Source: Schmidtea polychroa (lineage: Eukaryota). Taken from it: a DNA stretch of 64,000 nt. Shown piece after piece: positions 5,972-37,121 of the stretch. The position numbers and the translations under genes were made by a program. Within the stretch, counting starts at the first letter, position 1. Each line of letters begins with the position of its first letter. The stretch spans positions 18,850,001 through 18,914,000 of the forward strand of contig CM097885.1 in NCBI GenBank assembly GCA_044892525.1, read 5' to 3'. The notes under the pieces are model-generated. The model did no database searches. It saw nothing but the letters and a program-made list of their open reading frames with translations, and was not told the origin of the DNA.

Positions 5972-6557
5972 ATAAATACAGTAAGAAATAATCAATATAA
6001 ATATGTTGAGTTGTATACAAAAGTCAAAATATTATTAGTTCCTACGCTTAATTACTATTGATTAAAAAGCGATTTACAGAATCAGCTGTCAGGCAATTTA
6101 TTTGCAATTAAAAAGGACTGATCAAGAAAGTAATAAAAGAGATTACTAATCTTAATAGTGGTGGGTTACTGGTGGTTGAATGATTGAGTGCTGTTACCAG
6201 CGTAACCCAAAATACAACATTGTTTTTTCCGCTTGGTACCCGTTGAGTGATCAACGTTGGTACTGTACCAAGGGTTGAGTACTCGCAAAAAGTGAGCGCA
6301 TCAAAGCACTATAGTTGTCGAGTACTCCGTGGGTTCACGGACTACCGATAGAAGGTGTGTGTCCGATTTCTCAGGTCCCTTTATCAAAATTGTTTTCCCA
6401 ACCTTATGCACAAACTCTCATTTCCCAGGCAATCATAAACTGTACTAGTCATTATTTTATCACTACAAAACGTGCAGTATTTTAACAAGGAACATATTAT
6501 TTGAAGACTACCACCATACATAAAAATACTACAAAACACCTAAAACCGAATATAAGT

Positions 6558-7028
6558 TCAAACAGGCTTATTGGTAGGACTGGCCAATTCCGTCGCATCT
6601 GCTAGTGACGAATTTGCTTGTCGCTCGTATTCGGCCAGTCTAGCTTTCTTCAATTTTTCCCGAATATTTCGGCCTAACCGCTTTCTTGTGGGTTTCTCTT
6701 TCGCGGCCGGGGGGTATATTGCTGCTAGTTCCACGGTCAACGGCCGGATTTGGCTTATGGCGGCTCCGTGAACTACTTGTTCATTGCGTTCGGTTTTTAA
6801 CGCGCGGAGCTGGAGTTTCAGTGCCCGGATCTCCATCTGATCCTGCGCAGCTTGCGTCTGCAGTTGAAGGACCTGCGCCACCTTCTTTTTCATATCCTCG
6901 GGACTAAACCAGGTGCTTTCTAGTTCCCGGCATCGTCCCTTGAGCTTGTCTACTCGTATGCGGAGCTCCTCGGACTGTTTTTGAGCATCTGCTCTATCTC
7001 TTCGCAGATTTTCCAATAGTTTGAACAC
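6558..7028 (-). CDS. LTR-encoded coiled-coil protein with basic NLS-like patch (no genomic ATG; starts at a splice-acceptor-like site)
   Basis: 156-codon ORF; decayed homologs with a shared WFSPE.MK...EIR.LK motif at ~48250, ~56150 and ~61030 imply coding constraint. Confidence 0.7.
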   Translation of the reverse strand: MFKLLENLRRDRADAQKQSEELRIRVDKLKGRCRELESTWFSPEDMKKKVAQVLQLQTQAAQDQMEIRALKLQLRALKTERNEQVVHGAAISQIRPLTVELAAIYPPAAKEKPTRKRLGRNIREKLKKARLAEYERQANSSLADATELASPTNKPV

Positions 7029-7237
7029 TAGATAAATTCAACGATTATATTCTTGCAGCATACTCTTCATTCAATTATAAAATAAAATCAATATTATAAA
7101 TAAACATAGTTTCGGATGTTAAGCACGCAATACACAAGATGATTTATTAAAAGGACTGAAATAATTATCACTAAAATCAAAGTTTAATAAAGTCACAACT
7201 GGATGATAATTTGCAAAAACAAAATTTTGACGATGAG

Positions 7238-7603
7238 TCAGTTCAGTCGCTTGCGAGGCCTTCCCCTCTTCCGCGGGGTTGCCTCGGCCTCTTCTAGGTC
7301 CTCCACGGTTTTTCCCTCTTTTTCTGCTTGGATTTGTAGCTCGATTTTCTTGAGTCGCATCTGAGCTGCTTCTACCTCGATGGCCGCTCGGTCGCGGGCC
7401 TCTTGCAAAAAATCGTTTGTGGGCTCTGTTTTTACCCACGCCGGAGCGTCCGGCTCCGGCCCACTCCTGATTACTGGGCCAAAGTTGTCGAGGTCCAAAC
7501 CCCGATTCCAATCATGGATACGGTGCCATATGTACCGTGTACGGAGTCTGGTAAGCATCTGTCGGTCGACTTCTTCGTGGCTATCGCTGTCAGAGTAGGA
7601 CAT
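7238..7603 (-). CDS. LTR-encoded small protein with a C-terminal AT-hook
   Basis: 121 aa ending TPRKRGRPRKRLN; ATG preceded by TTTTGTAG-AA. Confidence 0.7.
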   Translation of the reverse strand: MSYSDSDSHEEVDRQMLTRLRTRYIWHRIHDWNRGLDLDNFGPVIRSGPEPDAPAWVKTEPTNDFLQEARDRAAIEVEAAQMRLKKIELQIQAEKEGKTVEDLEEAEATPRKRGRPRKRLN

Positions 7604-8111
7604 TTCTACAAAATAATAATCAAGCCCCTCTATACTGATTGAGATACGACGTCAACCACAAGATTTTGTTGACCCTTTTTCCCTTTAAAAAAAAATATTT
7701 TATTTTAAGACTAACATCTATAAGCTTAGGAACAGTGGAATAAGATTTCCTACTTTATCAAAACAAACACAAAAAAAGGAATTTCGTCAAAATTCGTTTG
7801 TTTAAATCAATCATTTCCATTCAAAATTTTTGTTTACCATGAGTGGTAATTTTAATCACTATTTATAAATTTTAATTTATATGTTAATAAAATGTAAAAT
7901 TTTTTTAGATCGTCATTTTTAGGCCACTTAATTCGGGCACGCTGGGGCGACAGGTACTAGCAACGAACTAAGCTCTTCGTCTGCTTACCTTTCCTTCGGT
8001 TGTGCTCGTTATGAGTGGTTTGCTCTGCATACAAGTAATTTATTTAATTTGCTAATTTCTAAATTTCCAGGTGATCGATATCGGATTGGGATATCGATTT
8101 TTTGTAGTTAA

Positions 8112-8470
8112 CTGTAATAATACCAATAATAATAACAATGAAATAACGATACCAATAATAATAATAATAATGATAATAATAATATTAATAATAGCAATGA
8201 TAGTAATAATAATAAGAATAATAATAAATTTTAATAATGGTAATAATAATAATACTAATAATAATAATAACAAGAATAATAATAAATTTTTATAATGGGA
8301 CTGATAATGATGATAATAATAATAATGCTAATTATGATATTCATAATAATGATAATAATAATATAATAATAATAAGAATAAGAATAATAATACTAATAGT
8401 AATGATAATGTTGATACTGCTAATAGTAATAACCAGGGGAATGATCAGGATTATGATAACTATAATTTTA
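8112..8470. repeat. Degenerate (AAT)n microsatellite inside the LTR (copy at ~37996-38354)
   Basis: Direct reading; it generates spurious poly-I/N/L ORFs. Confidence 0.9.
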
Positions 8471-10836
8471 TAATCCCATGTTTTAAAATTATAAATTTAT
8501 GTTCTATGATTTATACTTTGATAATTTTCGATTTATAATTTAAAATTTTTCAATTTAGGGATTTACAATCTTGTAATTTATAATTATAATTTCATATTTT
8601 GAAATTTATACATTCATATTTTATAAGTTATAATTGCTTAACTTATAATTTATAAGTTTATAATCTAAAATTTATACTTTTGTAATTCGTATTTTCGTAC
8701 TTTATAATTTGAAATTTGTAGTCGACGGAATATACTTCTTGCAACTTCCTTTCTATGATCAACATTGTTTTCCGCAGTACTTACAGATTTCCTGGTCCTA
8801 TTTGTGGATTAAACTTCAGGGTTCTAGCGCGTCTATCGCCTATCTGTAACCAATCCTAAGTTGATTTTTATACGAAAAATTGTTTATTACTATCTCTGAT
8901 CAGACTTTCTCCATTAACAATTTACATTTTCAGGATCGACGTGATTTGTACCTAGCTATCGTAATTATTTATAACTTATAGTTTTATAGTTAACAACAAG
9001 AATATTACAACTAAGAGCCTACCCATTTACAAACATTTTAAAGTGGGAACTAGATTTAAAATGTCTATCTTTACTCGGAATCAGCATATCTAGATCAAGT
9101 TATACCTGTACGTATGCCGAATATCTCTCCTATTTCTATTACTTTATCAAAGATCCTTACTACAAAATCTAGTTCGGCATATATCTAAGTATAATTGAAA
9201 TTACCATTATGAATCAACTAGCTACATTAATGTGAGTGTAGAATTGTGTAATTTTAGGTACGAGCTCTACTCAAATTAGAACCTTAGTGTAGAGTTATTG
9301 TTCAGGATTTTAAGTGTTGAGTTTAATTGTATATTACGCAATGAGTCGGGAAGAATATTGCTTCCATGGCCCCACTGTGACCACGTCCACAAACCTTAGT
9401 GTTGTGTGCTAAGTCAACCATTTACGGCTGACCTTAAATAAATACGAAGAGTCAGGCGGAGGGTTTCCTCGACCTAACTCCATGGCAGGACCATGAAGTA
9501 GTTCGACCTCCGGCTGACCCGAACAAAAAGAAATCATATAATAAATATCACTATAATAATGATAATGCGTGTCTGCATGTCCTGTTAATAACGATTTTAA
9601 TAAATTGGATGCAGGACTGAACAACGACGCAGGAATACCAGTACGCCGTTGATCACTCATACATCGCAAAAAATTTTAAGCAAAAAATAAATTTAAAATA
9701 CCATCTATATAATTAAACAATTAATATACAAATAAAGATCAATGCTTACTATCGATTTTGGAAATTTCGTCACAAAAATTTGGCATAAAAGTGATTGATT
9801 GTGACTGAAACGTGTCAGTATATATACCTATTTAGTACACGTGTATGTATTGATGCATTAAAACAAACTCGAATTCTTTTTATTCCAGAATTTTCTATTT
9901 TACGATTTTGCTATTTTTAATGGCAATTTTTGTGCCATAATTTTTGTTTTTATTTTTATATTTTTATTTTTTAATTATTTTTCCTTAATTTTACGTCCAT
10001 GATGGATTTGGAACGGTTCCAGAACATTCTATTTTACTTTTAATTTAATTTTTATTTTAACTGATGTTTTTATGAATTCTTTTTGAGATTTTTTATTTTT
10101 AATACTAATTTATTTATTTTCCTTAACTTTTGTTGTTCTAGATAACTTTTGTGATGGTCATCGCCATTTTTATAGAATGTTCTGGGTTTTTCTGGAATGT
10201 TTTACTGTTTTTATCGTCTCTTAAGTTGTTCGAGTCTGTTTTTTTGTAACTCTGTGTTTATTTGGTTATTTTTGAGTTAGATTTTTGCATCACTTCTTGC
10301 TTTTGTATAATTTTGTTTAATTTCTTTGTTTATGTTTTTGTTGCTTTCTCCTTTAGTTAATATTGTTTATTTGGTGTAGGTTTTAATATTTAACTATACT
10401 TGGTGCTTTTTTACTTGCTGTGTACCTACGCGTTTCAGTCACAATTAGTATTTTGGGTCTAGAAATCAGTTCTAGCCCAACATAAAACACTCGGGGGCCC
10501 ATAAAATTGCGACCCGCAATTTAAATCACAAGATGAAGAAAATTATTTTTCAGAATACTTGCACTATATTACAAGTGCCTACATGCAAATTGGGTCTACG
10601 AGCTACAGGGTCGTGACCTCAATACCCACATACATAAAAAGGCTACTATTATACTACATTCTACGGATGGGTTGAAAGATGAAGAAAAGAACGACCGAGG
10701 TCGGTCCACACGAAAATAAAATTATCATGCTCAAGAATCAATGTTATTAGTCACAATCAGTCTCAGTCTTTGAAATCATGATTGTTTGATAATGTTTTAT
10801 AATGTCATGAAATGTTTATACTGTCGTGATGTCACA

Positions 10837-11823
10837 TTAATAAAATTCGGTTGTTCGGGATCTCGTCTCGATGACGGCTCTGGTTTCAATGTTTGGGGGA
10901 GATTTGAAGTAGCTTGGTTGGTTCGTTGTTTGGACTAGCTGTTCTTCCATTGGGATACGAATACTTCTTGATTGTTCCTTTAGTTTGAGGGTTTTGTTTC
11001 TTTCTTTACTGGAATTGGGTTTGAGTGCAATCAGGCTCAGTATGGTGATGTTTATCATTAGGCTCGCCGCTAATAGGATCAATATTGTGAGGGATTCAGA
11101 CTCTCTCGGTTCTATTACTTTGGGTTTGTTCATAATTTCTTTTAATTGGGTTGTATCCGCCGTTTCTGATTTTTCGGGCTTATTGAATTTGTTTTCTTCT
11201 GAGGTGACAACTTTCTTTATTGCCTCAAGGGTTTTAATCATCTTCTCGGAGTTCGTTGGGTTTTTGTTTATGGTAGTTAGGATTTCCCTTGTCATTTCTT
11301 TCAAGGTTTTCGTTACCTCATTTTTAATGCTGGGTTCCTCTTTGATGATGGAAGTTATTTTTCCTTTCATTTCCTCCAAAGATTTTACTACTGTTTCGCA
11401 ATTGCTTGAACGTCCATAGGCGGTTGCTGTTACCTGTTGTTTTATTTCCTCTAATATTATTACCATCATTCTCATTGCGGCTGGATCTGTTTGGGATTCT
11501 CTCTTTGATTTCTGACTTTGACATTGTTTGGCTAATGTTGCTATCTGGGTTCTGATAACTTTCATTTCTTGTTCTAACATTGTTTTTATTGTCTGAGCCA
11601 TTTGCACTTCCGTCGAACTTTCAGTTGTTTGTGGACATTGCGAACATTGTAACTTGATTTGTTCGCATTCCTCATTGGGTTTTTCGCAGATCGATTTAAA
11701 GCTACTACATGTACTATCTTCTCTGCGATATGGGTATTCTTTCTGGCATCTGATCATTGATTCTTCTGCTTGCAGGATTTTTGGCATTGTCATTATAATC
11801 ATCATCACGATTAGGCTTCTCAT
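10837..11823 (-). CDS. Accessory type-I membrane protein
   Basis: N-terminal signal-like peptide, six-Cys cluster, repeated helical stalk (KTLKEM/KTLEAI/KSLEEM), TM ILILLAASLMINITILSLIAL, cytoplasmic tail. Confidence 0.8.
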   Translation of the reverse strand: MRSLIVMMIIMTMPKILQAEESMIRCQKEYPYRREDSTCSSFKSICEKPNEECEQIKLQCSQCPQTTESSTEVQMAQTIKTMLEQEMKVIRTQIATLAKQCQSQKSKRESQTDPAAMRMMVIILEEIKQQVTATAYGRSSNCETVVKSLEEMKGKITSIIKEEPSIKNEVTKTLKEMTREILTTINKNPTNSEKMIKTLEAIKKVVTSEENKFNKPEKSETADTTQLKEIMNKPKVIEPRESESLTILILLAASLMINITILSLIALKPNSSKERNKTLKLKEQSRSIRIPMEEQLVQTTNQPSYFKSPPNIETRAVIETRSRTTEFY

Positions 11824-11899
11824 CTTTACATATACATATATGTTAATAATAATTACTTGGCTTTATTTACAATTTATTTACACGGTTATTTTGTCTCAT

Positions 11900-12667
11900 T
11901 TATTGGGAGCCACCGACCTCATCCCTTAATTTTACGGGAGGTTCAGGTGCTCGTCTTTTGCTCAACTCGTTCATTCTTATTACTTCGAGTTGCGTTGCTA
12001 TCAACTGTCTCTTTAATTCTGGTATTTCTTGTAATTGCTTCTCTTTACTTTTCCATTTTCTCTGCTTGATGGTTATTGCCGTCTGCAATGCTTGCATGCT
12101 TCGTCGTTTTTGATTTAAGATTCTCCGGTAATTTTCTTTCAACTTCCATTGTTTTTCTGTTTCCTCTCTTTGTTCCTTGATCTCTTCCTTGAGTTTTACA
12201 TTTCTCTTCTCGACTTTTTTACTTTCTCGCACTCTTGTTTTTGCATAAGCATATTGTGCTTCTAACTGCTCGATATAGACTTGGTCGATATTCACAATCT
12301 TTTTCAACTTCCTTGTTTCTGATTTCCAATAATCTTCGATTACTGCCTGAGCTCTCAACTCTACTATCTCTTGTCTCAGGTTTTTATTTTCTGTCTCTTT
12401 TCGTTTCGATTCCTTTATTTTCCTCAAAATTTCTTGCTTGACAGTGTTTATTAATCGTCTTGATTGAACAATATGCTGCCTCAATCTCGTAATCTCTACA
12501 TTTTGATTTGCAATCTTTAATTTGAACAACTTCTTGCTGACTCTCCATTTATTGCTATAATATTTCATCGGTTCTTGTTTGATTGGTATCATATCCTGGT
12601 TTTGTTCAGGTTGGTCGTTTGACTTTCCTTCGTTACTCGTTGATTCTCTTTCTTTTAAATAATTCAT
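11900..12667 (-). CDS. Accessory basic coiled-coil protein
   Basis: Long K/E/R/Q-rich ORF; I place the start at ATG 12667 (MNYLKE), after TTTTTGTAG-AT, rather than at 12685. Confidence 0.75.
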   Translation of the reverse strand: MNYLKERESTSNEGKSNDQPEQNQDMIPIKQEPMKYYSNKWRVSKKLFKLKIANQNVEITRLRQHIVQSRRLINTVKQEILRKIKESKRKETENKNLRQEIVELRAQAVIEDYWKSETRKLKKIVNIDQVYIEQLEAQYAYAKTRVRESKKVEKRNVKLKEEIKEQREETEKQWKLKENYRRILNQKRRSMQALQTAITIKQRKWKSKEKQLQEIPELKRQLIATQLEVIRMNELSKRRAPEPPVKLRDEVGGSQ

Positions 12668-12750
12668 ATCTACAAAAATATACATATCATATTTCCTTTT
12701 GTCTTCTTTTTATTCTGAATTTTTTGGTTTTGTAATTTTTATTTGGTTTT

Positions 12751-12752
<2 letters not shown>

Positions 12753-12805
<53 letters not shown>
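12753..12805 (-). repeat. Poly(A)53 tract on the element sense strand
   Basis: 53 consecutive T on +, 32 nt downstream of the stop of ORF 12838..14436. Confidence 0.95.
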
Positions 12806-12837
12806 CATTCTTATTTACAGGCAACATCTCCCTTCGA

Positions 12838-14436
12838 CTAAATCCATGTTGCGTTATTTTGTTCGTTATTTTCATCGAAGCCTTCATCTGTGGTGACTTC
12901 GGCAGGCTGTGGCACTTGCAACGGGAACGGGTAGAGTGGCATTAATAATATTGGTGGTTGTCTCCTTAACCGATCTATTTCCTCTCGTAGTTCCGTTGAG
13001 ATGTTTATTTCCTCATCCAATAAAAACGTTAATCTACCTTCGTTTTCTATCATTTCGTTTAATTCCTCTTCCAATCGTTGGGTTCTTTCGAGCGTTTTTA
13101 GTTTCTCAATTTCCGCTCTCAAATTTGCTTCATTTTCTTCGAAGCATCGTTTTATTATCTCGGTTTCCTGTTTGGTTTGTTGAATTGTCTTGTCGCACTC
13201 CTCTCTATATTTCGCATTAAGCTCAATCTGGTGCTTCCAATTCACATCCCTTTGGGTGTACATACCTTTATATCCGTTCATCTCTTGATTGGCTTCTTCC
13301 ACTTCGGTTTGTAATTGTCGGATCTGTCGATCTTGGTCTGTCAATTGTTGTTCCCATCTCTTTTCCTGGAATTCATACCTTCTTATTTCTCGAGTCTGTT
13401 TCTTTATGATTCTCTGTCTACCGTCGCTGATCCGCGTCTTGATTCTATGTTCTCTACTCAATCGGCTGATCTCATCTTTTTGGTTTTCTATCGTTTCCCA
13501 TATTTTAAATTCGTCTCTTTCCATCAGTTTTATTGGTAACTGTCTTAACTCCTCTTTGGTCTCTTTCCAATTCTTTTTCCATTTTCGGGCTTGATGCTTG
13601 AGACACTTTTCGGTTTCCTCAGTTTTCTGCTGTCGTTTCCTCCACTCTACTTCCTCTTCTTCTCGCTGTGCAGCTCTTGTTTCGTAAAATTCTTGGTCTG
13701 CTTTTCGTAATCGCAGTTGTTCCTTGCTACTGATTTTCCAATAGAGCACTTGAGTTTGACTTCCTAGGTATTTATACTTCCATTTCTGGGCTTGTATCTT
13801 TATTTGTGTGTTAATTCGCTCTAATACGTTATCTCTAACAATTGGTTCTCTATGCGGTGTTCTCCTCCCTTGCCCTCTGACTTCGTTTAGGGTCTTTTTG
13901 CATCTGTCCCATTTTTCTTTCATCATTGCGCATTTGCCCTTTACTTCTTCTAGTTCGGCCTTGTAATTCCGTATTTGATGTTCGTGACTATCATTCTGCC
14001 TTGTCTGGAGGGTTTCGTACTTTAGTTTCCATTGTTGCGCTTGTAGTTTTATTCGTTCCGTTTTACGCTGTTCCTCCTCGTATTGTTCCTTTGCTTCCCT
14101 AATTTGTGCCTTCTGCATTATTATCTCTCCGCATAACCCAACTATCTCCATAATCCGCTGAGTTCGTAAATTCGAGAGCTCTTCCTCCAATTCTTGGTAT
14201 GTTGAGGTATTTCTCACATCCTCGGTTAATTCCTCTACCTGTTTCATCCACTCCTCCTTTGTTGCTAGTGCTTCCGCCTTCTCCGCTTCTAATTCTTGTT
14301 GCTTTTTCTCATACATGGTTTTGTACATTTCTATTTCTCTCTTTACTCTTTCTGCTTCGTATGTTTGTATGATGGATTTGTACTGTTCGAGTTGTTGCAT
14401 CTCGGTTTCCACATAGGTTTGTGATTCTTTATTCAT
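12838..14436 (-). CDS. Accessory long coiled-coil protein
   Basis: 532 aa, E/K/Q/R-rich heptads; internally repeated Q(A)xxWKxKY motif. Confidence 0.8.
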   Translation of the reverse strand: MNKESQTYVETEMQQLEQYKSIIQTYEAERVKREIEMYKTMYEKKQQELEAEKAEALATKEEWMKQVEELTEDVRNTSTYQELEEELSNLRTQRIMEIVGLCGEIIMQKAQIREAKEQYEEEQRKTERIKLQAQQWKLKYETLQTRQNDSHEHQIRNYKAELEEVKGKCAMMKEKWDRCKKTLNEVRGQGRRTPHREPIVRDNVLERINTQIKIQAQKWKYKYLGSQTQVLYWKISSKEQLRLRKADQEFYETRAAQREEEEVEWRKRQQKTEETEKCLKHQARKWKKNWKETKEELRQLPIKLMERDEFKIWETIENQKDEISRLSREHRIKTRISDGRQRIIKKQTREIRRYEFQEKRWEQQLTDQDRQIRQLQTEVEEANQEMNGYKGMYTQRDVNWKHQIELNAKYREECDKTIQQTKQETEIIKRCFEENEANLRAEIEKLKTLERTQRLEEELNEMIENEGRLTFLLDEEINISTELREEIDRLRRQPPILLMPLYPFPLQVPQPAEVTTDEGFDENNEQNNATWI

Positions 14437-14518
14437 TGTCTAAATAATTACACTATTACTACCACTATTATTTCATACATTTATTATCTACACTTTATAC
14501 ACGGAATTTTAATTTTTG

Positions 14519-15697
14519 TTATTGATCGGCGTAGCGGAATCCTTTGATTCGCTGCGCAATCCTCTGTCTGCACATCGGACATTCCTTTACTTTTCTACTA
14601 CATGTGGCACATGCGATCAAATGTCCGCATGGCATATGAATAACTTCTACACTCCTCTCCCAACACATAGTACATTTGATATCTCGTAAGATAGCTGTTT
14701 TGACCATTGATTCTTCTTTTATTTTTGTTTCAGGTTTTTCTCTATACTGGGTTATCGCTCTGATCATATCGTACGTTGTTGTTGGTATATGTACATTTTT
14801 CTGTAGTTTCTCTCTAATCATGTTCTTTGCCCTTGTCGTGCCTATTCCGGCTGCTTTCAACGCTCTGCACATGTTGGGTTTGTCTACCACTTCGTCAACC
14901 TCTTCCTCTGTTACTAGTACTTCCGGATATTCGGTTTCTTGTTCGTTGTGATATAGGCACCATGCTTGATGTCTAATTTCTGGTATGCCTTCTTCCGGTA
15001 ATCTCTGTTGGCTTTCGCATCTTTCACACTTTAGTATTTGATTTTCTGTTAGGTAGAACCCTCTTATTGCTAATTCAGGTCCTCTCGTATCATCTCCGAA
15101 CGTTTTCATTCTATTATCTGCTATTTGCGTGAGGAATTCCCCTTCACAAGTTGGAACATACTCATCAACGATTCTGGTTATCGCGATGCTCATTTTCCCT
15201 CCTTTTTCGTCTTCAGTTTTCAATTTCTCCAAGGCTTCGTATTTGATTTCCGGTTTGTTGTGTACATCAAATCCCAGTACGAATAGACAAGTTGGGAATC
15301 GTCTACGATGTTCCTCCTTTGGGTGTTCTCCTTTTTTCCATTCTGCTAATTTCCCTTTACAGAAACGACATGTTACTTGATCGGGTATCTCTGGTTTTCC
15401 GGAGAAGAAAAATCCGTCGCGTGCTAGCGCTCGGCTCTGTTCCTTGGTGAAAATGGTCTGATGTTCAAATGACAGATATCTCTGGTTCTCACATCTGAAT
15501 TGTTCATTATCTCCCAGTTTCAAATTTTCGTGTACCCAATTATAATCGTTTCCCATTCTCCGATAATATGCGTAACTACTTGGTTTTGTTTTGCTGACTT
15601 CCGCATCCTTCACTCTTTCTCTAGGTGGCATATTGTCCTCTTCCTCTCTCATTGTGATCGTTTTCTTTCGGATATTCGGTCTCTCTTGATTAATCAT
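14519..15697 (-). CDS. Inhibitor-of-apoptosis (IAP) protein: BIR, degenerate BIR, C-terminal RING
   Basis: LARDGFFF..DQVTCRFC..LAEW...EH....PTC (BIR); RMKTF...LAIRGFY...CERC...H...C; CTMCWER..VIHMPCGHL.ACATC....CPMCR (IAP-type RING). Confidence 0.92.
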   Translation of the reverse strand: MINQERPNIRKKTITMREEEDNMPPRERVKDAEVSKTKPSSYAYYRRMGNDYNWVHENLKLGDNEQFRCENQRYLSFEHQTIFTKEQSRALARDGFFFSGKPEIPDQVTCRFCKGKLAEWKKGEHPKEEHRRRFPTCLFVLGFDVHNKPEIKYEALEKLKTEDEKGGKMSIAITRIVDEYVPTCEGEFLTQIADNRMKTFGDDTRGPELAIRGFYLTENQILKCERCESQQRLPEEGIPEIRHQAWCLYHNEQETEYPEVLVTEEEVDEVVDKPNMCRALKAAGIGTTRAKNMIREKLQKNVHIPTTTYDMIRAITQYREKPETKIKEESMVKTAILRDIKCTMCWERSVEVIHMPCGHLIACATCSRKVKECPMCRQRIAQRIKGFRYADQ

Positions 15698-15837
15698 CTA
15701 TAATAAATTTCATCATTTCTTTTTACATTTTCTTTTTCTAATTTTTATGGTTTTGGCAAGTTACTTTACTGTATACAATAACTTTATATTTACTTTACAT
15801 CGTTTTTACAAAATATTTACAGTTCCCTTCTATCCGT

Positions 15838-17262
15838 CTATCGTATTTCTATTGTTGGTCCTTCCTCATCTAGTTCGATTAGGAAGAATATAGTGTCCTT
15901 TTCTATGTAGGACCCTTCATTAAATTGGTATAGCTGCATAAACTCTGCTACTCCTACCGCAGGATTAACCTCTGTAATCGGTTTATTCCCTGCTGGACTG
16001 GATGCTCGAAAACACATTATATGTGTCTTTTTTGCTCCTAAGAGAGATATTTTTAATCTATGTCGGAATGGCCATGCTATTAGGTCGTCAAAATCTCCTT
16101 TACAAATCTGCATATATATGGACATGCACCGATCTTTAAACTTTCCTTCACCATTTGGAAACCATCTCAATTTCATCTTGTATCCATGTTTCTTGGCGTA
16201 GAATGGTTTGCTCACTATCGTTGTCTGGATTCCTTGCTTTGCTTGCTCCATTATTTCCGTTATTCCTTGGATTTTCCACATGTATGGCAGTATTGGTAGT
16301 TCCTCTGTTGTCAGTTCCTTTGTAGTCCATTTGGTTTGTAATTTAGTTACTTCGACTAATTTGTCGTCTAATTTCAACATCCTTTGTGTTACGGCTTCTC
16401 TCGTATTTTCGAAGCTTTCCTGTGAGCTCAGCATTTCTTTTATCATGATTTTATGTGATTTGAGTTCGTCTTTGACGTCTTCAATTGCTCTTGCTGTTAA
16501 CTCTATTGCTCTCATCATCTTTTGCATGTGCTCGAATGTATTCTCCTCCACATGCTTCTTCATTTCTTCTGCTGGTAATTGTGCTCTACAGTCGAATGTC
16601 ACCATTGGGCATTTTATTGCTTTTCTCGTGCATATCTCCCAATGTTCATTTAATCTGACGTTGTTAATTTCTCCACACTCGTTTGGGCATTTCCCTGTAT
16701 ATTCGTCGCAAATCCGTCTTTCTACTGCGTTTCGATGTTCCATTTCGATTTCTCTCCAATTAGCAGTTTCTCCGCAAAATTCGCATTTTTCCGTTCGCGC
16801 TTCGCATTCCCCTTTATGTTTGGTTTTCTCTTTTCGTAAAAACTTTACCGTGCATGCTTCGCATTCCGATTCCAGATATTCGCATACGTCTGTATGGGCT
16901 CTTAACTCCTTTACTCGGCCTGTCCATTCGCATGACCTTTGGGTGCATCTTATTTTCACTTCTCTGATTTCTCGGTTCATTGCTCTATCCGGTATCGTAC
17001 CAGTGGGAACCAACTTAAATGCTTCTCCACATCCTGGACAAGTTTCTCGCTTTAGTCTGGCTAATCTTATATCACACCCTCGGCACAATCTACACCCGCA
17101 TCGAGTTTGACTTGCTCCAATTAATAATCTTCTACATGCTGTATCGGCACATAATAATCTCTCTTCGAACTCGTCCGGCTCGGCTTGGTATTTTCTCATC
17201 AACTCATAGTTAATCTTTTGTTCCTCTGCTTCTCTCCGGTTTTCCTCTGCTTTGTTTTGCAT
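15838..17262 (-). CDS. TRAF-family protein (RING-like, TRAF zinc fingers, coiled coil, MATH)
   Basis: Cys-rich N-terminus; C..GC/SC.W.G...L..H...C zinc fingers; MATH motifs WKI...SKPFY..GYKMKLR.FPNG...GDFDDLIAWPF...DTIFF. Confidence 0.92.
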   Translation of the reverse strand: MQNKAEENRREAEEQKINYELMRKYQAEPDEFEERLLCADTACRRLLIGASQTRCGCRLCRGCDIRLARLKRETCPGCGEAFKLVPTGTIPDRAMNREIREVKIRCTQRSCEWTGRVKELRAHTDVCEYLESECEACTVKFLRKEKTKHKGECEARTEKCEFCGETANWREIEMEHRNAVERRICDEYTGKCPNECGEINNVRLNEHWEICTRKAIKCPMVTFDCRAQLPAEEMKKHVEENTFEHMQKMMRAIELTARAIEDVKDELKSHKIMIKEMLSSQESFENTREAVTQRMLKLDDKLVEVTKLQTKWTTKELTTEELPILPYMWKIQGITEIMEQAKQGIQTTIVSKPFYAKKHGYKMKLRWFPNGEGKFKDRCMSIYMQICKGDFDDLIAWPFRHRLKISLLGAKKTHIMCFRASSPAGNKPITEVNPAVGVAEFMQLYQFNEGSYIEKDTIFFLIELDEEGPTIEIR

Positions 17263-17351
17263 TCTACAATGATGATTTTTAATCTTGGGATTTCTACTTG
17301 ATTATAACTCTATTTATTTACAGGATTATTTACATTTCACTCCTTTCTCTC

Positions 17352-17807
17352 CTACACATCTACCGTCGAGTCCGGTTCCCCTGTTCCTGGTAACCCGGTC
17401 ATCCACTCGACTAAACTGGTAATATCATCATGTTGTCGATTTTCATGCAACCTTCTAATTTCTTCCGCTTGCCATCTGATTTGGCTTATTAACTGATTGT
17501 TATTATACTCTAGTTGCGCGATTATTTGGTGTTGTTCCTCTATTTTTGTAATATATATTGCATTTCTATTAATACTCTCTATCAACGCCGTTTGGTTTCG
17601 TACCCAGTGCTCTTGAGTCTGATTTGTCAATTGGGTCATTAATTCACACTGTACCCTCCACATGGATCCTGTTGGCTGACTCGGCTGGTTTGGCACGTTC
17701 ATTTCCATCATGTCTACTGGATGTACATTCATAAGCGGCTGTTCTCTTACTTCAACAACATGTGGTATCCCATTTGGGTGTTCTTGCTCTTCGTTTCTCT
17801 GGTTCAT
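17352..17807 (-). CDS. Accessory protein of unknown function (Q/N-rich, short coiled coil)
   Basis: 151-aa ATG ORF in the same strand and spacing pattern as its neighbours. Confidence 0.7.
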   Translation of the reverse strand: MNQRNEEQEHPNGIPHVVEVREQPLMNVHPVDMMEMNVPNQPSQPTGSMWRVQCELMTQLTNQTQEHWVRNQTALIESINRNAIYITKIEEQHQIIAQLEYNNNQLISQIRWQAEEIRRLHENRQHDDITSLVEWMTGLPGTGEPDSTVDV

Positions 17808-17955
17808 TCCTATTTATAATACATGGTCATCATACTTGTTTTTGATTTTTCTACATATTGTTTTAATTTACTACTTTTATTTTGTACATACTACTACTAT
17901 TATCACTACTTTTATCATTTCATTTATACATTATTTACAACAACTCCTCCTCTCG

Positions 17956-20900
17956 TTATACCAGTGTCGCCATGGGGCCGGAATGCAGCGTGCGCATTCC
18001 CCCATATCTTTCGTCCGTTATTCGGTATATATCGACTTCGTGTGTCCATTCGTTCGGTGTGGGTATTCTTGGTAGTTCCGACATCCACAATCCGCTGGAT
18101 CCGGGATCCTCTACCACCTCGTATTCTTCTAGATTCAGATTCTCTGTTGGAATACCGTATTCAAATTTTTCCACTTTGGGCCATTTTCTTTGGTTTCTCG
18201 GTTTTTGTTTACATCTTTTGGTGGTTCTTATCCACTGAATCATTGCTAACGCTATTATCGTGCTTACTATCGCGCTAGTTATCCATATCATCTTTGTGAT
18301 GATCGTTGTTCCATTATTTGTTTTTTCTGTCGTTAATATTGTACTACCTGTGGTATTTGTTTCTGGTGCTTTGATTTTCTTGAATGCTTGATGTAATCGT
18401 TCCTTCTCTTTTTCTGTTAGGTGACTGTGATTTTCCCGTTTCTCTCCCCCTTTTTGATCTCGGGGTATCCACGGTATGTTTATTAATTGGGGTTTTTGTC
18501 GAGTTATTGGTTGACATACGCTGGTTCCTCTTCCTTTCTTAAGGATACATACTTGGTATCGTTCTTTCCGTTTCCCTGTCTCCATTTTAACGTCTGTACC
18601 TTTGTCTATTGGTGTTGTTGTGCAGTCGATTATTCCCGTCTTATCCATTACACATATCCTTATGATTGGTTCTCCTTCCTGGTTTTTGACTGTAATTACC
18701 TCTTCACCTTTCTTGTTGAGGTTAATAGTTATCTGCACTTCCCGTCTTTCGTCTTTAATTACTTCGTTAATCCATGTTGTTGTTGTTATTAATTCGGTTT
18801 GATTTTGCTCTGTTGTTGTTTTTGTACTAACTGATTTGTTTGGCTTCTTGGTTGTTATCCCCCTCAATGGATCTTGTTTCATTGCCATACTCTTTGGCTT
18901 GTCTTTTCTTGGTGCAGTTCTTGTTCCTTTACATACTACTATCCCTTGTGTTCCTGCGCATACCACAGTAGGGGTATTTGGTTTGACCTCTCCCCAGAAG
19001 AATTTGTGGTCTTGTGTCATATCAGTTATTATGCATATGTCTCTGTCTTCTCTGATGCATACATGTGTAATTGATCGACTCCCTTTATCTTCTATTTCGA
19101 TACCTTCTTCCAAAATGTTGAGTTGAAAATGTACTCCGGTTTCGTTGGCTCTTTCTAGCTCCATTTCCTTTGTTGATATGTCTCTACAGATGTCATAATC
19201 TCCACATAGCCTGGGATCTCTTTTTTGGCTGCTAAAAATCTTTCCTTTTGTTATCGATCTGAAATCACAACTTACTCCTGTTCCTTCCATTAGTTGCACA
19301 CATATTCCGACGGCATTTCCGTCGTAATCACTGACTTTTATCATAAATACTTCACCTTCTTGGGAAGCTTCTCTTACGATTCTCATATTTTTTGTTTCTG
19401 TTAAACAGATGGATGTTAATATTATAAATATTCTTTGTAGTAGGATTGGCTGGATTTGATTTCGACACACTATGCTATGTAGTGGGGACTTTCGTTTTTT
19501 GTTCTCCGTTTTGTCGAATCCTTGATCTTCACCTCGACATTGGTCTTCTTCGTCTTCTTCCAATTCCTCATCATCACTCGTTGTTTCTCCGCCTTCCGGA
19601 TTCTGTTCTCTGTCGTTTTCCTCTGGGTTGTTATCGTTATCCCCCATCCTTTCGTCGTCGTCGTCGTCGTCATTCCTCTCACCCGGGGTTTTCCTGAAAA
19701 TGTCGTCCTCGACATTTGCTGCTTTGATCATCTCCTCGTATTTTTTAATTATCTCTTTTTTGTCGTTGTGGATACTTTCTCGTTCTTCTTTGGTTCCTTG
19801 ATATTTCCGTTGTTTCCGGTGCCATTCCCACACTAGTATTCCTAGTTGCTTTTTCATCGCATGTGTTTTTGTGCATTTCCACCAATTACCTGTCAATTCT
19901 GTTCTATTTCTCTGTAATATTGCTTTAATGGTTTTTGGCATTGGTGGTCTTGAGTATATGGCGCTTCTTAGTACGATATTTTCGTTGTTTTGGAATTGAT
20001 TTATATCAATTACTTCCGCTCTTAATTCGTTTTGTTTCCATTTGATTAATATTGCTGCGGTTCTGTCTAAGTTTCCTCTGATGGCTTCCAGAATTGGTTC
20101 AATGCTCTGTCCCAACACCTCGGCTTCTTCGGTTGTTGCATTTCCTGTGATAAAGTTCACTATACTAGGTCTTTTTGACCTGACGGCATAACGTAATACG
20201 GTTCGTTGTTTGTTGTCTTTTTCTTTCAGCGTGGATCCCGTTCTTAATAATTCTCTGAGTACATCTCTTGACGCGCCTATTGCTATGGCTTTCATCAGTG
20301 GAGTTTTTCCTTTACTGTTTTTGACGTTTGTTGATTGTTTGCAGTTTTCCATTATTCGTATAATCTCTAAAGCTCGTTTTTCTTGTCCTGCTTTCACTGC
20401 ATGATGGATTGGCCAGTTATTACTCAAATCACTTGTTAGGAACATGATTGGTAATCTCCGGATTAGTTCATATATTTGAGTCGGTATTTGTAATCCTTCG
20501 GCATATCTTCGTCCTTTCGCATATCTTTCTGCTACTAACATTAGTTTGCCCAATACTTGGTATTTATTGGTTATATCGGCCCATTCTGGTACAATTTCTC
20601 GTGCTATTTTTACTGTCATATTCCATGTTGCTTGGCTCCTTGCCATTGCGTCAGCTTCGCTTTCTGCTTCAGTTCCTTTATGGGCGCTGCTGCTTGTTTC
20701 TCCTCTCAACATGAATATCCGTCTTGTCTGTGATCTAGTTAATCTACCGCTTACTTCTGGTTCCGTTGTGGCATTTGTTTGTGATCTCGTGATTATCCTT
20801 CTTGTTTCTGGATCTTTAGTGGCAGTTTTCGCCACTGCTTTGCATCGACATGTATTCACATAAATGGGTCTAATTAGTGGATTGTTAACCAACTTCACTC

Positions 20901-23900
20901 TAGCGTTGTTCTCGTTTACATAGATGATTTCATATGGCCCTCTGCCATTACGTTGTAATTTCTTTGCTGTTCCTGGGATTAATTCGGGTGTTTCTATAAT
21001 AACCCAATCTCCGATTTTAAATTGATGGTTTTGCACGTTCTTCTTTTTATCATGTAATTCCTTATAACTCTCTTGGTTGAATCGGATGTTCATCCCTGCG
21101 GTTTTCCATATTTCTTGCATTCTCTCCTTGAACTTTGTCACATAATCATCTATCTCCATATATTGTGAGATTGGCGGTTGGTATTCGAGATCCATCGGCA
21201 TGTTGCATTCCCTTCCATACATGAGTTTAAACGGACTCATTTTCGTTGCTGAGTGTATTGACATTCGATAAGCCATTAGGCACAACTTAATATATTCATC
21301 CCAGTCCTTTTGATGTTTACTCACGTAATTGGACATCATGTCTATTAGTATGCCGTTAAATCTTTCTGTCTGACCATTCGTTTGCGGGTGGTATGGTGAG
21401 GTTCTCAATTTGGCAATTCTAAAATAATTTGTCACTTCATTTATTATTTCGCTCATGAAATTAGTTCCTTGGTCAGTTAAGATTTGTTTTGGTGTTCCAT
21501 ATCTGCAGCAGATCTCTTCCACTAATATCCTTGCAACCGTTCGTGCTTTCTGGTCTGGCATCGCAAATGCTTCAGGGAACTTAGTCAGATAATCAGTTAT
21601 TACCAATATATACACATTTCCACTGTTAGTCTCTGGTAGTGGTCCAACTACATCCATTGCAATCATTGTCATCGGTTCTGGCGGTATCGGCATTGGTTTC
21701 AATGGTGGCTTTAGTTTACTGCCCGTTGTTTTTCTGGTTGCGCATATCAGGCAGTTCTTTATCCATTCTTTCACGTCATCGCTCATATTTGGCCAGTAAT
21801 ATTTCTGTTTGAGCCTTGCTTCTGTTTTCTTGGCTGACATATGTCCGCCCAATTTACCATCGTGGTATTGAATCATAATTGCTTTCCGTCTACTTTCTGG
21901 TAGACACATCAATCGTTTGTCGCCATCCATTACCAATAGCCATCCTTTCTCGATCGTATATCTGTGACGATTTTTCTCCATGTGTTCTTTTAGTCGATCA
22001 TCGTTGTTGAATATTTTCATATCGTTTTTTTCCAGGAACTCAATTATTAGTTTTAATTCATTGTCTTCCTTTTGTTCGTTCTTTAGATTGGTAAAATCGA
22101 TATCTTCCGCGATTATCAGGCATATTCGTCTGACGTCATGATCCATGAGTTCCTCAAATACAAATCTCGACATGCAGTCTGCATTTGCGTTTGCTTTTCC
22201 TGACTTGAATTTGATGTATGGGGAATATTCTTGTAACTGCATTGCCCATCTCATCAATCGACTAGATGCCTCTTTATGTTGGCCCAACCAAACTAGAGGT
22301 TGATGGTCCGTAGTAATAATTATCTCGTGTCCCCATAATAAATATTTGAAATGTTTTATCGCCTGAATTATTGCTAAGGCTTCTCTTTCTGTGACCGAGT
22401 AATTCTTCTCGTGTTTTTTGAACGTCTTGCTATAATATCCGATGACTCTTTCTCTTTTCTCCTCATCCCATTGTCCTAGCACAGCTCCTGATGCGTATCC
22501 ACTTGCATCAGTTGCTAATAAAAAAGGCTTTTTGAAATCTGGGTGGATTAAGATAGGCGAGGCTATTAGTTTATCTCTTAGCGATTCGAAAGCTATTTGC
22601 TGTTCCCTTTCCCACAGAAATGGAGTATCTTTTTTTGTTAGTTCTTGAATTGGTTTTGCGATAGTTGCATAATTTTTGATAAACTTGCGGTAGTATCCGC
22701 ATAATCCCAGAAATTCTTGTACCTGAGTCACGGTTTTTGGTATCGGACAATTCTTTATTTTCTCAACGTTTCTCGGATCTGGTTCTTTTCCTTTTGCCGA
22801 CACAATGTGTCCTAAAAATGTGACTCTCTCCTTTGCCCAGTCGCATTTTGACGGTTTCAATTTCAGCTTCCATTGTTTCAGTCTTATGAATACGTTTCTG
22901 ATGTCGATTAAGTGTTGCTCGAAAGTACCTGAATAAATTAACAGATCATCGATATACACCATACATTGTTTGATCCCGTGTGTCACAAAGTTCATACATC
23001 TCTGAAACGAAGCAGGTGCGTTTGTTAATCCAAATGGCATCTTTTTAAACTGATATAAATCTTTTCCGATGGTAAAGGCTGTCTTTTCTCTATCTTCCTC
23101 TTTAACTTTAATTTGCCAGTATCCACTCTTTAGATCTAAAGATGTAAAGTATGCTGCTCCATGCAACATCTGTAACATTTCGTTTATGTCTGGCAGTGGA
23201 TATGTATCTCTTTTTGTTACTGCGTTCAACCTCCGATAGTCAATACAAAATCTCTGTGTGCCATCTTTCTTTTTGACCATTACCACTGGGAATTGCCATG
23301 GTGAGCAACTAGGTTCTATTACCCCAGCATCTAACATCTTTTGTACTTCTTCCTCTGCTACCGTTTTTTGTGCTTCAGCCAATCGATATGGTCTTAACGT
23401 TATGGGTGTCTCATCTGTTAATGGTATAATGTGTTGAGTTACATCGCTAGTACCCAAATCCAAATCTGAAGCCGCAAAAATATCTTTAAACTCAATCAGT
23501 AGTTGTCTGAGTTGTTCCTTTTCGTCTTTATTTAGGAGTTCGCTATCGATGGTCCATAATTCTTTTTCGTCTGCTCCCTCGCTTTTTATCTCCGGTAGCT
23601 CAATGTTCATCATTGGTGTGAGTTTTCCAAGTCTCTCGTTTTCGTAGATTACTTTATCTTCCTCATCAAAATTGGTGATATTGATGGGTATCTCGTTATC
23701 CTCATTTATACTGACAATTTCTCTTGCCAATGGCAGCTCCCTTCTCTTCTCGAATTTTTGACTTGGTTCAAATATCATATCTCCTTTGGCTTCGTTATCG
23801 ACCTTGACATAACATATTGTCTGGGTACGTGCTGGTATTATCATTTTTTCGGAGCATCTCACTTCTGTTCTCATTGTGCATATCTGTCCAGTTTTATCTT

Positions 23901-32022: not shown

Positions 32023-33113
32023 TATTTCTTGACACAAAATTGTTATATTGGTTGACTCTGAACTATTTCCTTCCTCGTCTGATGATTCAATGTCACTTAT
32101 CGGATCTAGTTCGGTTCGTTTAAGATCGTCGCTGTTCTCAAATTCGTTTGTTAAACTGTCTGATTCAAATACTGTTTCTACTGATGCTGGCTTCCTGTGT
32201 AGTTTTCTGTTGGTCTTGGCCTTTTGTATCTCTTCCTTTTCCAATAAACTGAGGTTTCCTTTACTTTTTCGCCTCGTTCGGTTAGCTATGCTATCAATTT
32301 TTCCTCCTTTTAATATCCTTTGCTAAATTTTCTACTTTGTCAATCGAGCTCGATGTTTTCTAAGTATTTTTCTCGCTTTAATCTTTACGATTCTCTAACT
32401 CTTCTTGGATTTGGTTTTATTAATTTCCTTGATTCTTCGCTTCTAATTGATTTCTCTATATCTCTTGATTTCTATTGCTTTCTTGATTTCTTTGATTTCT
32501 TTCTGAATTGTTTGCTTTATTCTAAAATAATTAACACCTCTAGTACATATCATAAATTCTCTTTGTTAAACCCTTCATTTACTTTCCCTTTTCCCTTTAT
32601 TTTACTGTCCCTTCGCTTCAAATTTTCTAGCTTTTCTACACTTCTCGCTATTCGCCCCATTTTGATTTTAAGTTGATTTTAAATTATCTATAACTCGTAT
32701 CAATTATCTATATAGTCGTATCAATTATCTATCCCTTTTATTATTATCATAGAAATATAATATTAATCACATAAATATCAAAATAAACATATCATTAATA
32801 AATAAAATTCAATAATTCAACTACTATCTATTCGTTCGCTTTTCCCCATCCAAAAACTGGTTTAATTTTCGCTTGCGCCGGCGCTTTATCATAATTCTCC
32901 TCTACTCATTACATATTTATCGCACTTAATCTATTTCAGTTTAATCAATTTCATAGTTAATCATTGATGCTTTGGTTCGCGCGACCTCTACATCCACCTT
33001 TATTTACCATCGGCTCTCTGGCCGGTTTGTTCAACTCCTTTATTTTCATTTAAATCATTTCACTCAATTACCATCGGCTCCTTGGCCGGTTTAATCAACT
33101 CATTTTAATCTCA

Positions 33114-33425
33114 TGAAGTCTTTTACGACTCCTAGACGCCTGGGCTTTTACACCATTACGCCATATAATCTACTATTACCCATCAACGCTTTGGTTTGTT
33201 AGACCTCCGCGTCGGCATCGGCTTCCGGCCGGTTTAATCAAAATTGAAGTCTTTTACGACTCCTAGACGCCTGGGCTTTTACACCATTACGCCATATAAT
33301 CTACTATTACCCATCAACGCTTTGGTTTGTTAGACCTCCGCGTCGGCATCGGCTTCCGGCCGGTTTAATCAAAATTGAAGTCTTTTACGACTCCTAGACG
33401 CCTGGGCTTTTACACCATTACGCCG
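33114..33425. repeat. 131-bp tandem repeat (~2.4 copies) in the 5' leader
   Basis: Unit TGAAGTCTTTTACGACTCCTAGACGCC... restarts at 33114, 33245 and 33376; degenerate sub-units extend to ~32970. Confidence 0.9.
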
Positions 33426-36016: not shown

Positions 36017-36034
36017 ATCCCGGCTGAGCCCCCA
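36017..36034 (-). promoter_or_regulatory. Primer binding site, tRNA-Pro-like
   Basis: Minus strand TGGGGGCTCAGCCGGGAT matches the canonical tRNA-Pro PBS TGGGGGCTCGTCCGGGAT at 16/18; 8 nt from the 5' LTR. Confidence 0.85.
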
Positions 36035-36912: not shown

Positions 36913-37121
36913 TAGATAAATTCAACGATTATATTCTTGCAGCATACTCTTCATTCAATTATAAAATAAAATCAATATTATAAATAAACATAGTTTCGGA
37001 TGTTAAGCACGCAATACACAAGATGATTTATTAAAAGGACTGAAATAATTATCACTAAAATCAAAGTTTAATAAAGTCACAACTGGATGATAATTTGCAA
37101 AAACAAAATTTTGACGATGAG

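Follow-up and report, generated by a model that had tools for sequence, protein, structure and literature searches.

The closest described systems are the giant planarian Ty3/gypsy elements Burro/GYPSM1 (Jurka 2007, Grohme 2018, as summarised in PMC6431247). As excerpted, that description shares with the element analysed here a length of >30 kb, a single polyprotein approaching 5,000 aa (Gag, MATH, an in-frame mononegavirus-like env, PR-RT-RH-IN, and ankyrin), and BIR and coiled-coil accessory ORFs. The excerpt names the accessory ORFs of Burro (IAP, TRAF, and coiled-coil) without giving their mode of expression, and it differs from what we report in mentioning neither a motif in the spacers, nor a pattern of acceptors, nor a mechanism of expression (PMC6431247). 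The Pumilio response element, consensus UGUANAUA, has a preference for 3′ UTRs according to the part of PMC5758885 used here. RSV carries a position-dependent, stop-proximal shield against nonsense-mediated decay (PMC4764554), and miRNA sites are lacking just after stop codons, in the "ribosome shadow" (PMC4859803).

The element and its genes

The window, which is the whole 64-kb stretch of DNA that was analysed, contains a giant Burro-type Ty3/gypsy LTR retrotransposon of 34,208 nt (~34.2 kb) at 6159..40366; it carries all six spacers, and it and all features below are on the minus strand. The assignment is based on the LTR match, the flanks, the domains, and the Burro description. The element has TG...CA ends and a 4-bp target-site duplication. 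Its 4,324-nt LTRs are 100% identical (5′ LTR, 36043..40366; 3′ LTR, 6159..10482), and the 5′ LTR includes two ORFs and a candidate splice donor at 37872 with an in-phase 14-codon ATG exon (37914) ahead of it.

A single giant ORF (17956..32022) encodes a 4688 aa polyprotein with a CCHC knuckle, MATH, a Monjiviricetes-type fusion protein, protease, RT, RNase H, integrase, and ankyrin. The Pfam order is PF00098, PF24664 (E 8e-68), protease, RVT_1, RNase H, and rve, with the env-like fusion protein in frame between gag and pol. Upstream of the ORF the frame stays open for 300 nt, as far as an acceptor-like TTTAG (32323, phase 0), with no ATG. Behind the polyprotein are accessory ORFs of 151 aa (17352..17807, no Pfam family), 474 aa (TRAF-like, with zf-TRAF and MATH, 15838..17262), 392 aa (IAP-like, with BIR and RING, 14519..15697), 532 aa (12838..14436, no Pfam family, coiled-coil-like by eye), 261 aa (11900..12685, no Pfam family; 255 aa from ATG 12667), and 328 aa (the last, 10837..11823). 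MATH/TRAF, BIR, and ankyrin motifs are present, as in Burro. The leader encodes a RING ORF of 160 aa (34835..35317), with a TAG abutting its ATG and a deviant TGTCAAATA at +9 past its stop. The upstream genes have no detectable kinship, except that the polyprotein MATH resembles the TRAF ORF and the RING resembles the IAP.

Burro also has BCL2-like, ubiquitin-like, and dUTPase-like motifs. Here 13/13 PDB matches are to Bcl-xL, but with E values of 0.57-0.96, and ubiquitin-like Pfam matches are below the cut-off. There is no match in this element to the dUTPase-like part of Burro. None of the named Burro1-4 is among the best 120 of 209 matches, and 15 env-bearing relatives are among the matches listed. 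A search with the TRAF ORF for other copies returned 0/4,550 candidates. Scans with RT-IN found 159 related Ty3 loci, none of which has the env or cargo genes, and an env scan of viral contigs gave no match. A single distant relative has accessory ORFs: L001, at 50% RT-IN identity. Rfam has 0 matches over 6000-40500, and ARAGORN found no tRNA genes.

The spacers, their motif, and the acceptors

Measured from the stop codon to the next longest-ORF ATG, the spacers are 148, 89, 140, 82, 152, and 76 nt long (687 nt total), and spacer 5 is 170 nt instead of 152 nt if the true start is ATG 12667. A sequence-only reading of the window had given their range as ~76-170 nt, which agrees with these lengths (170 being spacer 5 from ATG 12667), and the eight TGTA(A/G)ATA sites it had listed are all where it placed them on the minus strand. 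Spacer 1 (17808..17955) has TGTAAATA at +17 (17932-17939), a second TGTA at +26, and a TAG 2 nt ahead of the ATG. Spacer 2 (17263..17351) has TGTAAATA at +18 (17327-17334) and +30 (17315-17322), with a TAG 1 nt ahead of the ATG. In spacer 3 (15698..15837) the TGTAAATA at +17 (15814-15821) is followed by more TGTA at +28 and +39, and a TAG abuts the ATG. Spacer 4 (14437..14518), with a TAG 3 nt ahead of the ATG, has TGTATAAA at +18 (14494-14501) and TGTAGATA at +27 (14485-14492); the site listed earlier is present and is this second copy, while the stop-anchored copy had been overlooked. Spacer 5 (12686..12837) has TGTAAATA at +19 (12812-12819), a run of 53 A from +33 (12753-12805), and a T-rich, acceptor-like TAG that ends at 12670, 2 nt ahead of ATG 12667. 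Spacer 6 (11824..11899) has TGTAAATA at +18 (11875-11882) and +29 (11864-11871), and here AAG abuts the ATG.

The spacers have 8 TGTA[AG]ATA sites in 687 nt vs 0.49 expected, in 6/6 spacers vs 0.47 expected; 0/20,000 dinucleotide shuffles reach either value, a very large margin for a motif that was chosen from the same data. On this check, one of those that had been proposed, a chance origin of the motif is rejected. The element coding sequence (20,499 nt) has one site vs 1.0 expected, the TGTAG|ATA acceptor at 12667-12674. There are two in the leader vs 0.34 expected (35710-35717 and 35686-35693, within 35686..35717), the second at +20 after a 17-codon mini-ORF (35766-35713). The element scan found 0 in the LTR (sense strand of the 3′ LTR included) and 0 behind the last ORF. 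The motif appears where a gene follows, and the stop of the last ORF is without it.

The distance to the stop codon, which had also been overlooked, is nearly constant: the first TGTA starts at +17, +18, +17, +18, +19, and +18 in spacers 1-6, leaving a gap of 16-18 nt. With all windows scanned, TGTA in one 3-nt post-stop window in 6/6 spacers is reached by 3/100,000 circular rotations and 0/20,000 shuffles. Other stop triplets in the region have TGTA at +17-19 in 18/1,128 cases; among the 159 related Ty3 loci, TGTA occurs at +16-20 behind 5/495 ORFs and the full motif behind none. A second TGTA lies 9-12 nt beyond the first in 5/6 spacers. The sequence in the 16-18 nt ahead of the motif differs between spacers, and the first 16 nt are G-rich (30/96 vs 78/591 in the remaining spacer sequence, P 3e-5). 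In folding predictions no spacer folds better than its shuffles (z -0.95 to +1.79), and a shared RNA structure is rejected. The distance from motif to ATG ranges between 48 and 134 nt, which disfavours a role in splicing of the next ORF, whether as splice signal or as branch point. Readthrough from one ORF to the next is excluded by the spacer lengths, none of which is a multiple of 3 (remainders 1, 2, 2, 1, 2, and 1; 170 nt leaves 2). The placement of the motif hints at control acting where the ribosome finishes.

A TAG ends 0-3 nt ahead of 7/8 accessory ATGs vs 37/670 ATGs overall (P about 4e-9; 7e-7 leaving out the re-picked start). An acceptor-like TAG at nearly every ATG points to separate mRNAs and argues against one polycistronic RNA; acceptors placed in this way suit cis-splicing equally well as an SL operon. 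Four of the 15 runs listed, X1, X2, X3 ("RNA?"), and X10, were compared as contigs, which carry no ends, strand, or level. Contigs span spacers 1 (X10), 2 (X1, X2), 4 (X3, X10), and 6 (X1), with no single transcript among them. None of the 11 joints listed is at an acceptor, and none of the 24 of 210 loose ends listed is SL-like or poly(A), in contigs that carry no RNA ends. For relatives with ~95% identity, the differences listed (12 of 69 indels and 40 of 684 substitutions) include two spacer 2 indels, at +61 and +77, both distal to the motifs (a weak observation).

Readings of the stop-anchored site

The sequence-only reading had identified the 8-mer as the Pumilio response element. We agree: all 8/8 listed sites equal UGUANAUA, and they are on the sense strand, tied to the stops, in non-coding RNA predicted to be unstructured. 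Our preferred reading, held tentatively and with a little less than even confidence, is that each ORF is carried on a separate mRNA, spliced or trans-spliced, and that a host PUF protein docks just outside the terminating ribosome. The motif, usually doubled, would be a host PUF (Pumilio-type) site at the first position clear of that ribosome. The edge of the ribosome footprint lies ~12-13 nt past the stop and the shadow extends ~15 nt. Splicing to the AG ahead of the ATG would place each ORF first on a separate mRNA, with the spliced 5′ end probably supplied by the LTR donor at 37872 or by a flatworm spliced leader. Only the ribosome is able to gauge a distance from a stop codon, so the site would be recognised on RNA under translation, in the cytoplasm, and the binder would be a PUF protein. 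The bound protein may act with termination, most likely shielding from nonsense-mediated decay (compare the RSV RNA stability element, RSE) mRNAs that would still carry kilobases of downstream ORFs; alternatively, the site may serve as a Pumilio decay switch for each cistron separately.

For the PUF reading we count the enrichment, the anchoring at +17 to +19, the differing pre-motif sequence, the TAG pattern, and the spacers without predicted structure. Against it, this is one element with n=6, and at position 7 the stop-anchored site of spacer 4, TGTATAAA, departs from the response element. The last ORF also faces a long 3′ UTR and has no motif, and the distant relative L001 has one site at +36 and none behind its other two stops. 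PUF proteins normally destabilise mRNA, and we know of no case in which they shield from nonsense-mediated decay. Known shields (RSE) act over about 200-400 nt, and single-base spacing is not needed. The G-rich first 16 nt are left unexplained, whereas a polypurine tract (PPT), discussed below, explains them.

An unlikely alternative, which refines the sequence-only interpretation, is that every spacer has a poly(A) site set by tandem UGUA through binding of the CFIm25 dimer, and that SL trans-splicing caps the downstream ORF, as in an SL2-type operon; the poly(A) sites of the cargo block would have to be suppressed to yield full-length RNA. The second TGTA 9-12 nt past the first in 5/6 spacers, the restriction of the motif to places where a gene follows, and the acceptors adjoining the ATGs are consistent with this, as are flatworm operon gaps, which peak near 100 bp (PMC8629364). 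As excerpted, PMC5068929 reports that CFIm25 is found in S. mediterranea, which counts for this alternative, and that CFIm59/68 is not; its report that UGUA is absent upstream of poly(A) signals in this planarian counts against it. The run of 53 A at +33 in spacer 5, whose start is 10 nt past the initial base of an AATAAG, could be a fossil tail, copied by reverse transcription. Several motifs do overlap AATAAA or lie ahead of it, as had been remarked, but AATAAA, the hexamer of the proposed CFIm/CPSF signal, is at chance level, with 7 in the spacers vs 6.16 expected (8,539/20,000 shuffles reach 7) and none in spacer 3. The Pumilio half of the sequence-only interpretation fits; the poly(A) half is weak, with no support from what was tested. 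Candidate hexamers are scattered (+6 to +124), with 9-43% U downstream (highest in spacers 4 and 6). CFIm needs less specificity than this 8-mer, an SL AUG would sit out of frame ahead of 4/8 ORFs (offsets 1, 2, 2, and 2), and a nuclear signal does not explain the fixed distance to the stop codon.

The G-rich stretch is better accommodated if stop, purine tract, and TGTAAA are a relic Ty3 3′ end (pol stop, PPT, and first LTR bases) copied with each gene gain, or are retained as internal plus-strand priming sites serving a 30-kb genome, which we find quite unlikely. In spacers 1, 2, and 5 the motif sits behind G-rich purine tracts of 9-14 nt; in spacer 3 such a tract is less clean. Nine ordinary Ty3 loci have stop-PPT-TGT, in some cases TGTAAA, as do L102 and L139. 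There is no PPT ahead of the real 3′ LTR of the element. The purine tracts of spacer 5 and behind the RING stop are followed by TGTTG, the first five LTR bases. Set against this, purine tracts are missing from spacers 4 and 6 (0 and 2 G among the 16 nt), which still have TGTA at +18, the distance in ordinary elements varies from +11 to +36, and the tandem second copy is unexplained. The 8-mer and its spacing would not persist while the remainder diverged, and the tracts, in 3-4/6 spacers, have no LTR abutting them. We give little credence to the motif as a DNA element, TATA-like (TAAATA/TATAAA) or forkhead-like (consensus GTAAATA), in an internal promoter that would drive the next ORF. Its presence only where a gene follows, the two copies upstream of the leader RING ORF, and TATAAA within the spacer 1 and spacer 4 variants would suit a promoter, but TATA boxes are in only 5% of planarian promoters (PMC10558129). 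A promoter would also leave the TAG ahead of each ATG unaccounted for, and the anchor is the upstream stop, not the downstream ATG. Reinitiation, in which a bound protein hands ribosomes from ORF to ORF on a single polycistronic RNA, as on the caulimovirus 35S RNA, would account for stop anchoring, for motifs found only where an ORF follows, and for short spacers predicted to be unstructured. It is very improbable here, given acceptor-like TAGs that argue for separate mRNAs and gaps of 76-170 nt, which are long behind long ORFs.

Implications and comparison with known systems

The complete picture, in which six accessory genes are expressed like those of a complex retrovirus or an SL operon and a measured Pumilio site at each internal stop docks on the terminating ribosome, is unlikely as a whole. 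If true, it would give PUF proteins a termination-coupled role (shielding from nonsense-mediated decay or control of ribosome fate) and tie the anti-apoptotic cargo to stem-cell translational control. A Pumilio homologue is reportedly essential for planarian stem cells (work attributed to Salvetti, 2005), so the element could tune this cargo to neoblast state. In this layout, which is precise and testable, ATGs come behind an acceptor, and stops are followed at 16-18 nt by a PUF-type site. If the spacing is functional, it points to an RNA-binding protein working in contact with termination, a mode that our literature search did not find for Pumilio; the same search found no paper on Burro spacers or a stop-anchored response element.

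With SL2-type operons (C. elegans; Macrostomum and parasitic flatworms) the locus shares co-oriented genes ~100 nt apart, an acceptor beside the ATG, and a host group that has SL trans-splicing. It differs in lying within an LTR element that also needs full-length RNA, and in having no enriched AAUAAA and no clear U-rich element; the SL here is putative. With Pumilio response elements it shares the sequence of the 8/8 listed sites, which are on the sense strand, past stops, in RNA predicted to be unstructured, and often paired. The excerpted PMC5758885 describes no fixed distance from such an element to the stop, and the candidate sites here are in retroelement intercistronic spacers. With the RSV RSE, which is bound by PTBP1, it shares a retroelement RNA whose 3′ UTR is long and, just past the stop, an element that depends on position; the RSE is a single ~400-nt element recognised by a polypyrimidine-tract protein, whereas here an 8-mer recurs at six stops behind a gap of 16-18 nt.

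The element, its ends and its surroundings

The Burro-type Ty3/gypsy element (6159-40366, minus strand) is complete and contains all of the spacers that carry the motif. Its two LTRs (6159-10482 and 36043-40366, minus strand) are 4,324 nt each and 100% identical, and the TG...CA termini are flanked by a 4-bp target-site duplication; together, LTR identity, intact ends and the duplication mark the insertion as recent. On the minus strand it encodes a 4,688 amino acid polyprotein with a CCHC knuckle, MATH, a Monjiviricetes-type fusion domain, protease, RT, RNase H, integrase and ankyrin, a RING ORF 5′ of the polyprotein ORF, and six ORFs 3′ of it (151 aa, TRAF, IAP, 532 aa, 261 aa and 328 aa). 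The layout matches that of the planarian Burro/GYPSM1 elements (PMC6431247). A Bcl-2-like part is hinted at by PDB matches that are all to Bcl-xL (13 of 13) but weak (E 0.57-0.96).

Each LTR contains two ORFs without a Pfam family (37122-37487 and 36442-36921, with copies at 7238-7603 and 6558-7037); the frame of the second is open for 144 nt 5′ of its ATG, and diverged copies lie at about 53264-53518 and 48446-48733. The GC-richer leader, 5′ of the polyprotein ORF, includes a 131-nt tandem repeat (33114-33428, about 2.4 copies, 99% alike), a candidate packaging or export element.

No polypurine tract was found directly 5′ of the 3′ LTR (10483-10512, minus strand). These nucleotides are predicted to form a 13-bp duplex (-23.8 kcal/mol) with the internal sequence at the 5′ end, on its PBS side (36018-36042, minus strand), which might serve 5′-3′ circularisation or provide a plus-strand primer that mimics a tRNA. 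The 18-mer at 36034-36017 is PBS-like and resembles the 3′ end of tRNA-Pro. Diverged contigs retain blocks near 10482-10522 and 10588-10640.

Outside the element are two intronless RRM/RS ORFs (1128-1895, minus strand, and 62988-63743, plus strand), Tra2-like by eye and 80% identical over the RRM region, which may be retrocopies or may have been carried by other elements as cargo. There is also a foldback-like element (2136-4281), whose long inverted arms (367 nt, 99%) enclose degraded gag-like ORFs.

Position of the motif after stop codons

The sequence-only reading had listed eight sites of TGTA[AG]ATA (TGTA core; TGTANATA) in the six spacers between the polyprotein ORF and the accessory ORFs that follow it (11824-17955, minus strand; numbered 1-6 in transcription order), and all eight are where it placed them. 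The motif is strongly enriched over dinucleotide shuffles, with eight copies in 687 nt of spacer against 0.49 expected and presence in 6/6 spacers against 0.47 expected; neither value was reached in 20,000 shuffles. Elsewhere in the element it occurs once in coding sequence (1.0 expected) and twice in the leader (0.34 expected), and a sense-strand count gave none in the LTR or 3′ of the last ORF. The 8-mer matches the consensus of the Pumilio response element (PRE; PMC5758885). AATAAA, which had been read as an accompanying signal, is not enriched in the spacers (7 versus 6.16 expected), and poly(A) hexamers reported for planarians are spread from +6 to +124 (nt after the stop codon) with 9-43% U downstream. 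Fold prediction found the spacers unstructured.

What was overlooked is the spacing from the stop codon: the first TGTA in spacers 1-6 starts at +17, +18, +17, +18, +19 and +18. This stop-anchored copy is TGTAAATA in five of the six spacers and TGTATAAA in spacer 4, where the previously listed TGTAGATA is a second copy. Random rotation of each spacer, with its motifs kept, brought all six into a single 3-nt window 3 times in 100,000; the width had been picked after viewing the data, and all window positions were scanned. From the first TGTA to the next ATG, the spacing ranges over 48-134 nt. TGTA follows at +17-19 after 18 of 1,128 other stop triplets of the region, and at +16-20 after 5 of 495 ORFs (many of them not element ends) in 159 related Ty3 loci, with the whole motif at none of the five. 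The feature holds up and is more sharply defined than first described.

The stretch between stop and motif is unconserved in sequence yet G-rich (30/96 versus 78/591 in the remaining spacer; coding, 22%). A second TGTA follows 9, 12, 11, 9 and 11 nt after the first in all spacers except spacer 5, where it is replaced by a templated A53 run (12753-12805) starting at +33 behind the 532-aa ORF; the run could be a fossil poly(A) tail, a slippage product or a PABP site. In the leader, a basic mini-ORF of 17 codons (35766-35713) repeats the pattern (TAG 1 nt 5′ of ATG and TGTAAATA at +20 after the stop; motif region 35686-35717), which may be chance.

We compared relatives about 93-99% identical, in contigs from 4 of 15 listed sequencing runs; among runs annotated as RNA, none contained this DNA. 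The two indels listed for spacer 2 (17275 and 17291) are both distal to the motifs, spacers 4 and 6 are each spanned gap-free by a single contig (40 substitutions in 977 nt and 19 in 449 nt), and spacer 3 is covered by one contig with four gaps, which may lie anywhere along that contig. Constraint on the proximal part of the spacers is weakly suggested.

Expression of the ORFs

TAG ends 0-3 nt 5′ of the ATG in seven of eight accessory ORFs (five internal, RING and LTR ORF1), against a background of 37/670 ATGs of the internal region (P about 4e-9; 7e-7 without the re-picked start at 12667); the eighth has AAG in its place. On the 5′ side of its first ATG the polyprotein frame stays open over 300 nt (100 codons, 32023-32322, minus strand), in phase 0 and exactly from an acceptor-like TTTAG, and the Gag-Pol start may be supplied by splicing or a spliced leader (SL). 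The candidate LTR donor at 37872 is the sole AG/GTAAG among the seven G/GT[AG]AG sites listed and is preceded by an in-phase 14-codon ATG exon. From the acceptor-like TAGs, the open frame and this donor, we infer that each ORF probably has its own mRNA, via cis-splicing from 37872 or SL trans-splicing, the latter reported in S. mediterranea and Macrostomum (PMC12582326, PMC8629364). An in-phase AUG upstream would be out of frame for four of the eight ORFs, which is a difficulty for both routes.

Possible readers of the motif and known systems

What we propose for motif function comes from one element and its sequence. We tentatively favor, at somewhat below even confidence, a Pumilio-type (PUF) protein that would read the motif in a stop-coupled manner, binding translated RNA at the first position free of the ribosome. 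The ribosome shadow after a stop is about 15 nt (footprint edge, 12-13 nt); since this fixes just the minimum distance, the narrowness of the maximum suggests that closeness matters. Regulatory sites shun the region directly 3′ of stops (PMC4859803). Were the 3′ LTR the common end of all mRNAs, each of them would carry every downstream motif and a 3′ UTR of kilobases, and a copy at each stop would best be understood as a position-dependent shield, for which the RSV RNA stability element is a model (PMC4764554). If mRNAs instead end in their own spacer, the motif would be a per-cistron decay switch; we divide our preference about evenly between the two forms. Against a PUF-type reader, the anchored copy in one spacer deviates from consensus, the last ORF has no motif after its stop, and the distant relative L001 has no anchoring (its three stops share a single site, at +36). 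The binding itself is predicted from sequence, and we know of no precedent for PUF shielding.

A fixed distance from six unrelated stops is hard to explain at the level of the nucleus or DNA because frames are unread there. Internal promoters are a doubtful reading of the motif, and reinitiation is very improbable. A CFIm25 dimer on tandem UGUA, marking poly(A) sites of SL-resolved cistrons, is unlikely: CFIm25 occurs in S. mediterranea, but PMC5068929 reports UGUA missing 5′ of poly(A) signals and CFIm59/68 not found there. The A53 run would fit this reading as a fossil tail, or else be slippage. Rather less likely is a PPT-LTR junction, relic or functional; stop-purine tract-TGT arrangements occur at nine related loci (TGT at +11 to +36) and the element itself lacks a tract 5′ of its 3′ LTR, but the motif is kept in spacers 4 and 6 despite an absent purine tract.

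Among relatives, L001 (7110-9042; env-clade-like, 50% RT-IN identity) has two accessory ORFs after the polyprotein, one with TTTTAG directly 5′ of its ATG, and a block of about 55 nt present twice in its second spacer. An in-frame Monjiviricetes-type fusion domain is also present in at least 15 polyproteins from metagenomes (P0093, P0097-P0102, P0105, P0106, P0111-P0115 and P0117; 2,600-4,100 aa, about 50% RT-IN identity), so Burro-like elements extend beyond the planarian families named so far. The element type is known and so is the motif. Their combination, in which a PRE-like 8-mer stands 16-18 nt after every internal retroelement stop and nearly all ATGs have an acceptor, was not found in the literature searched.
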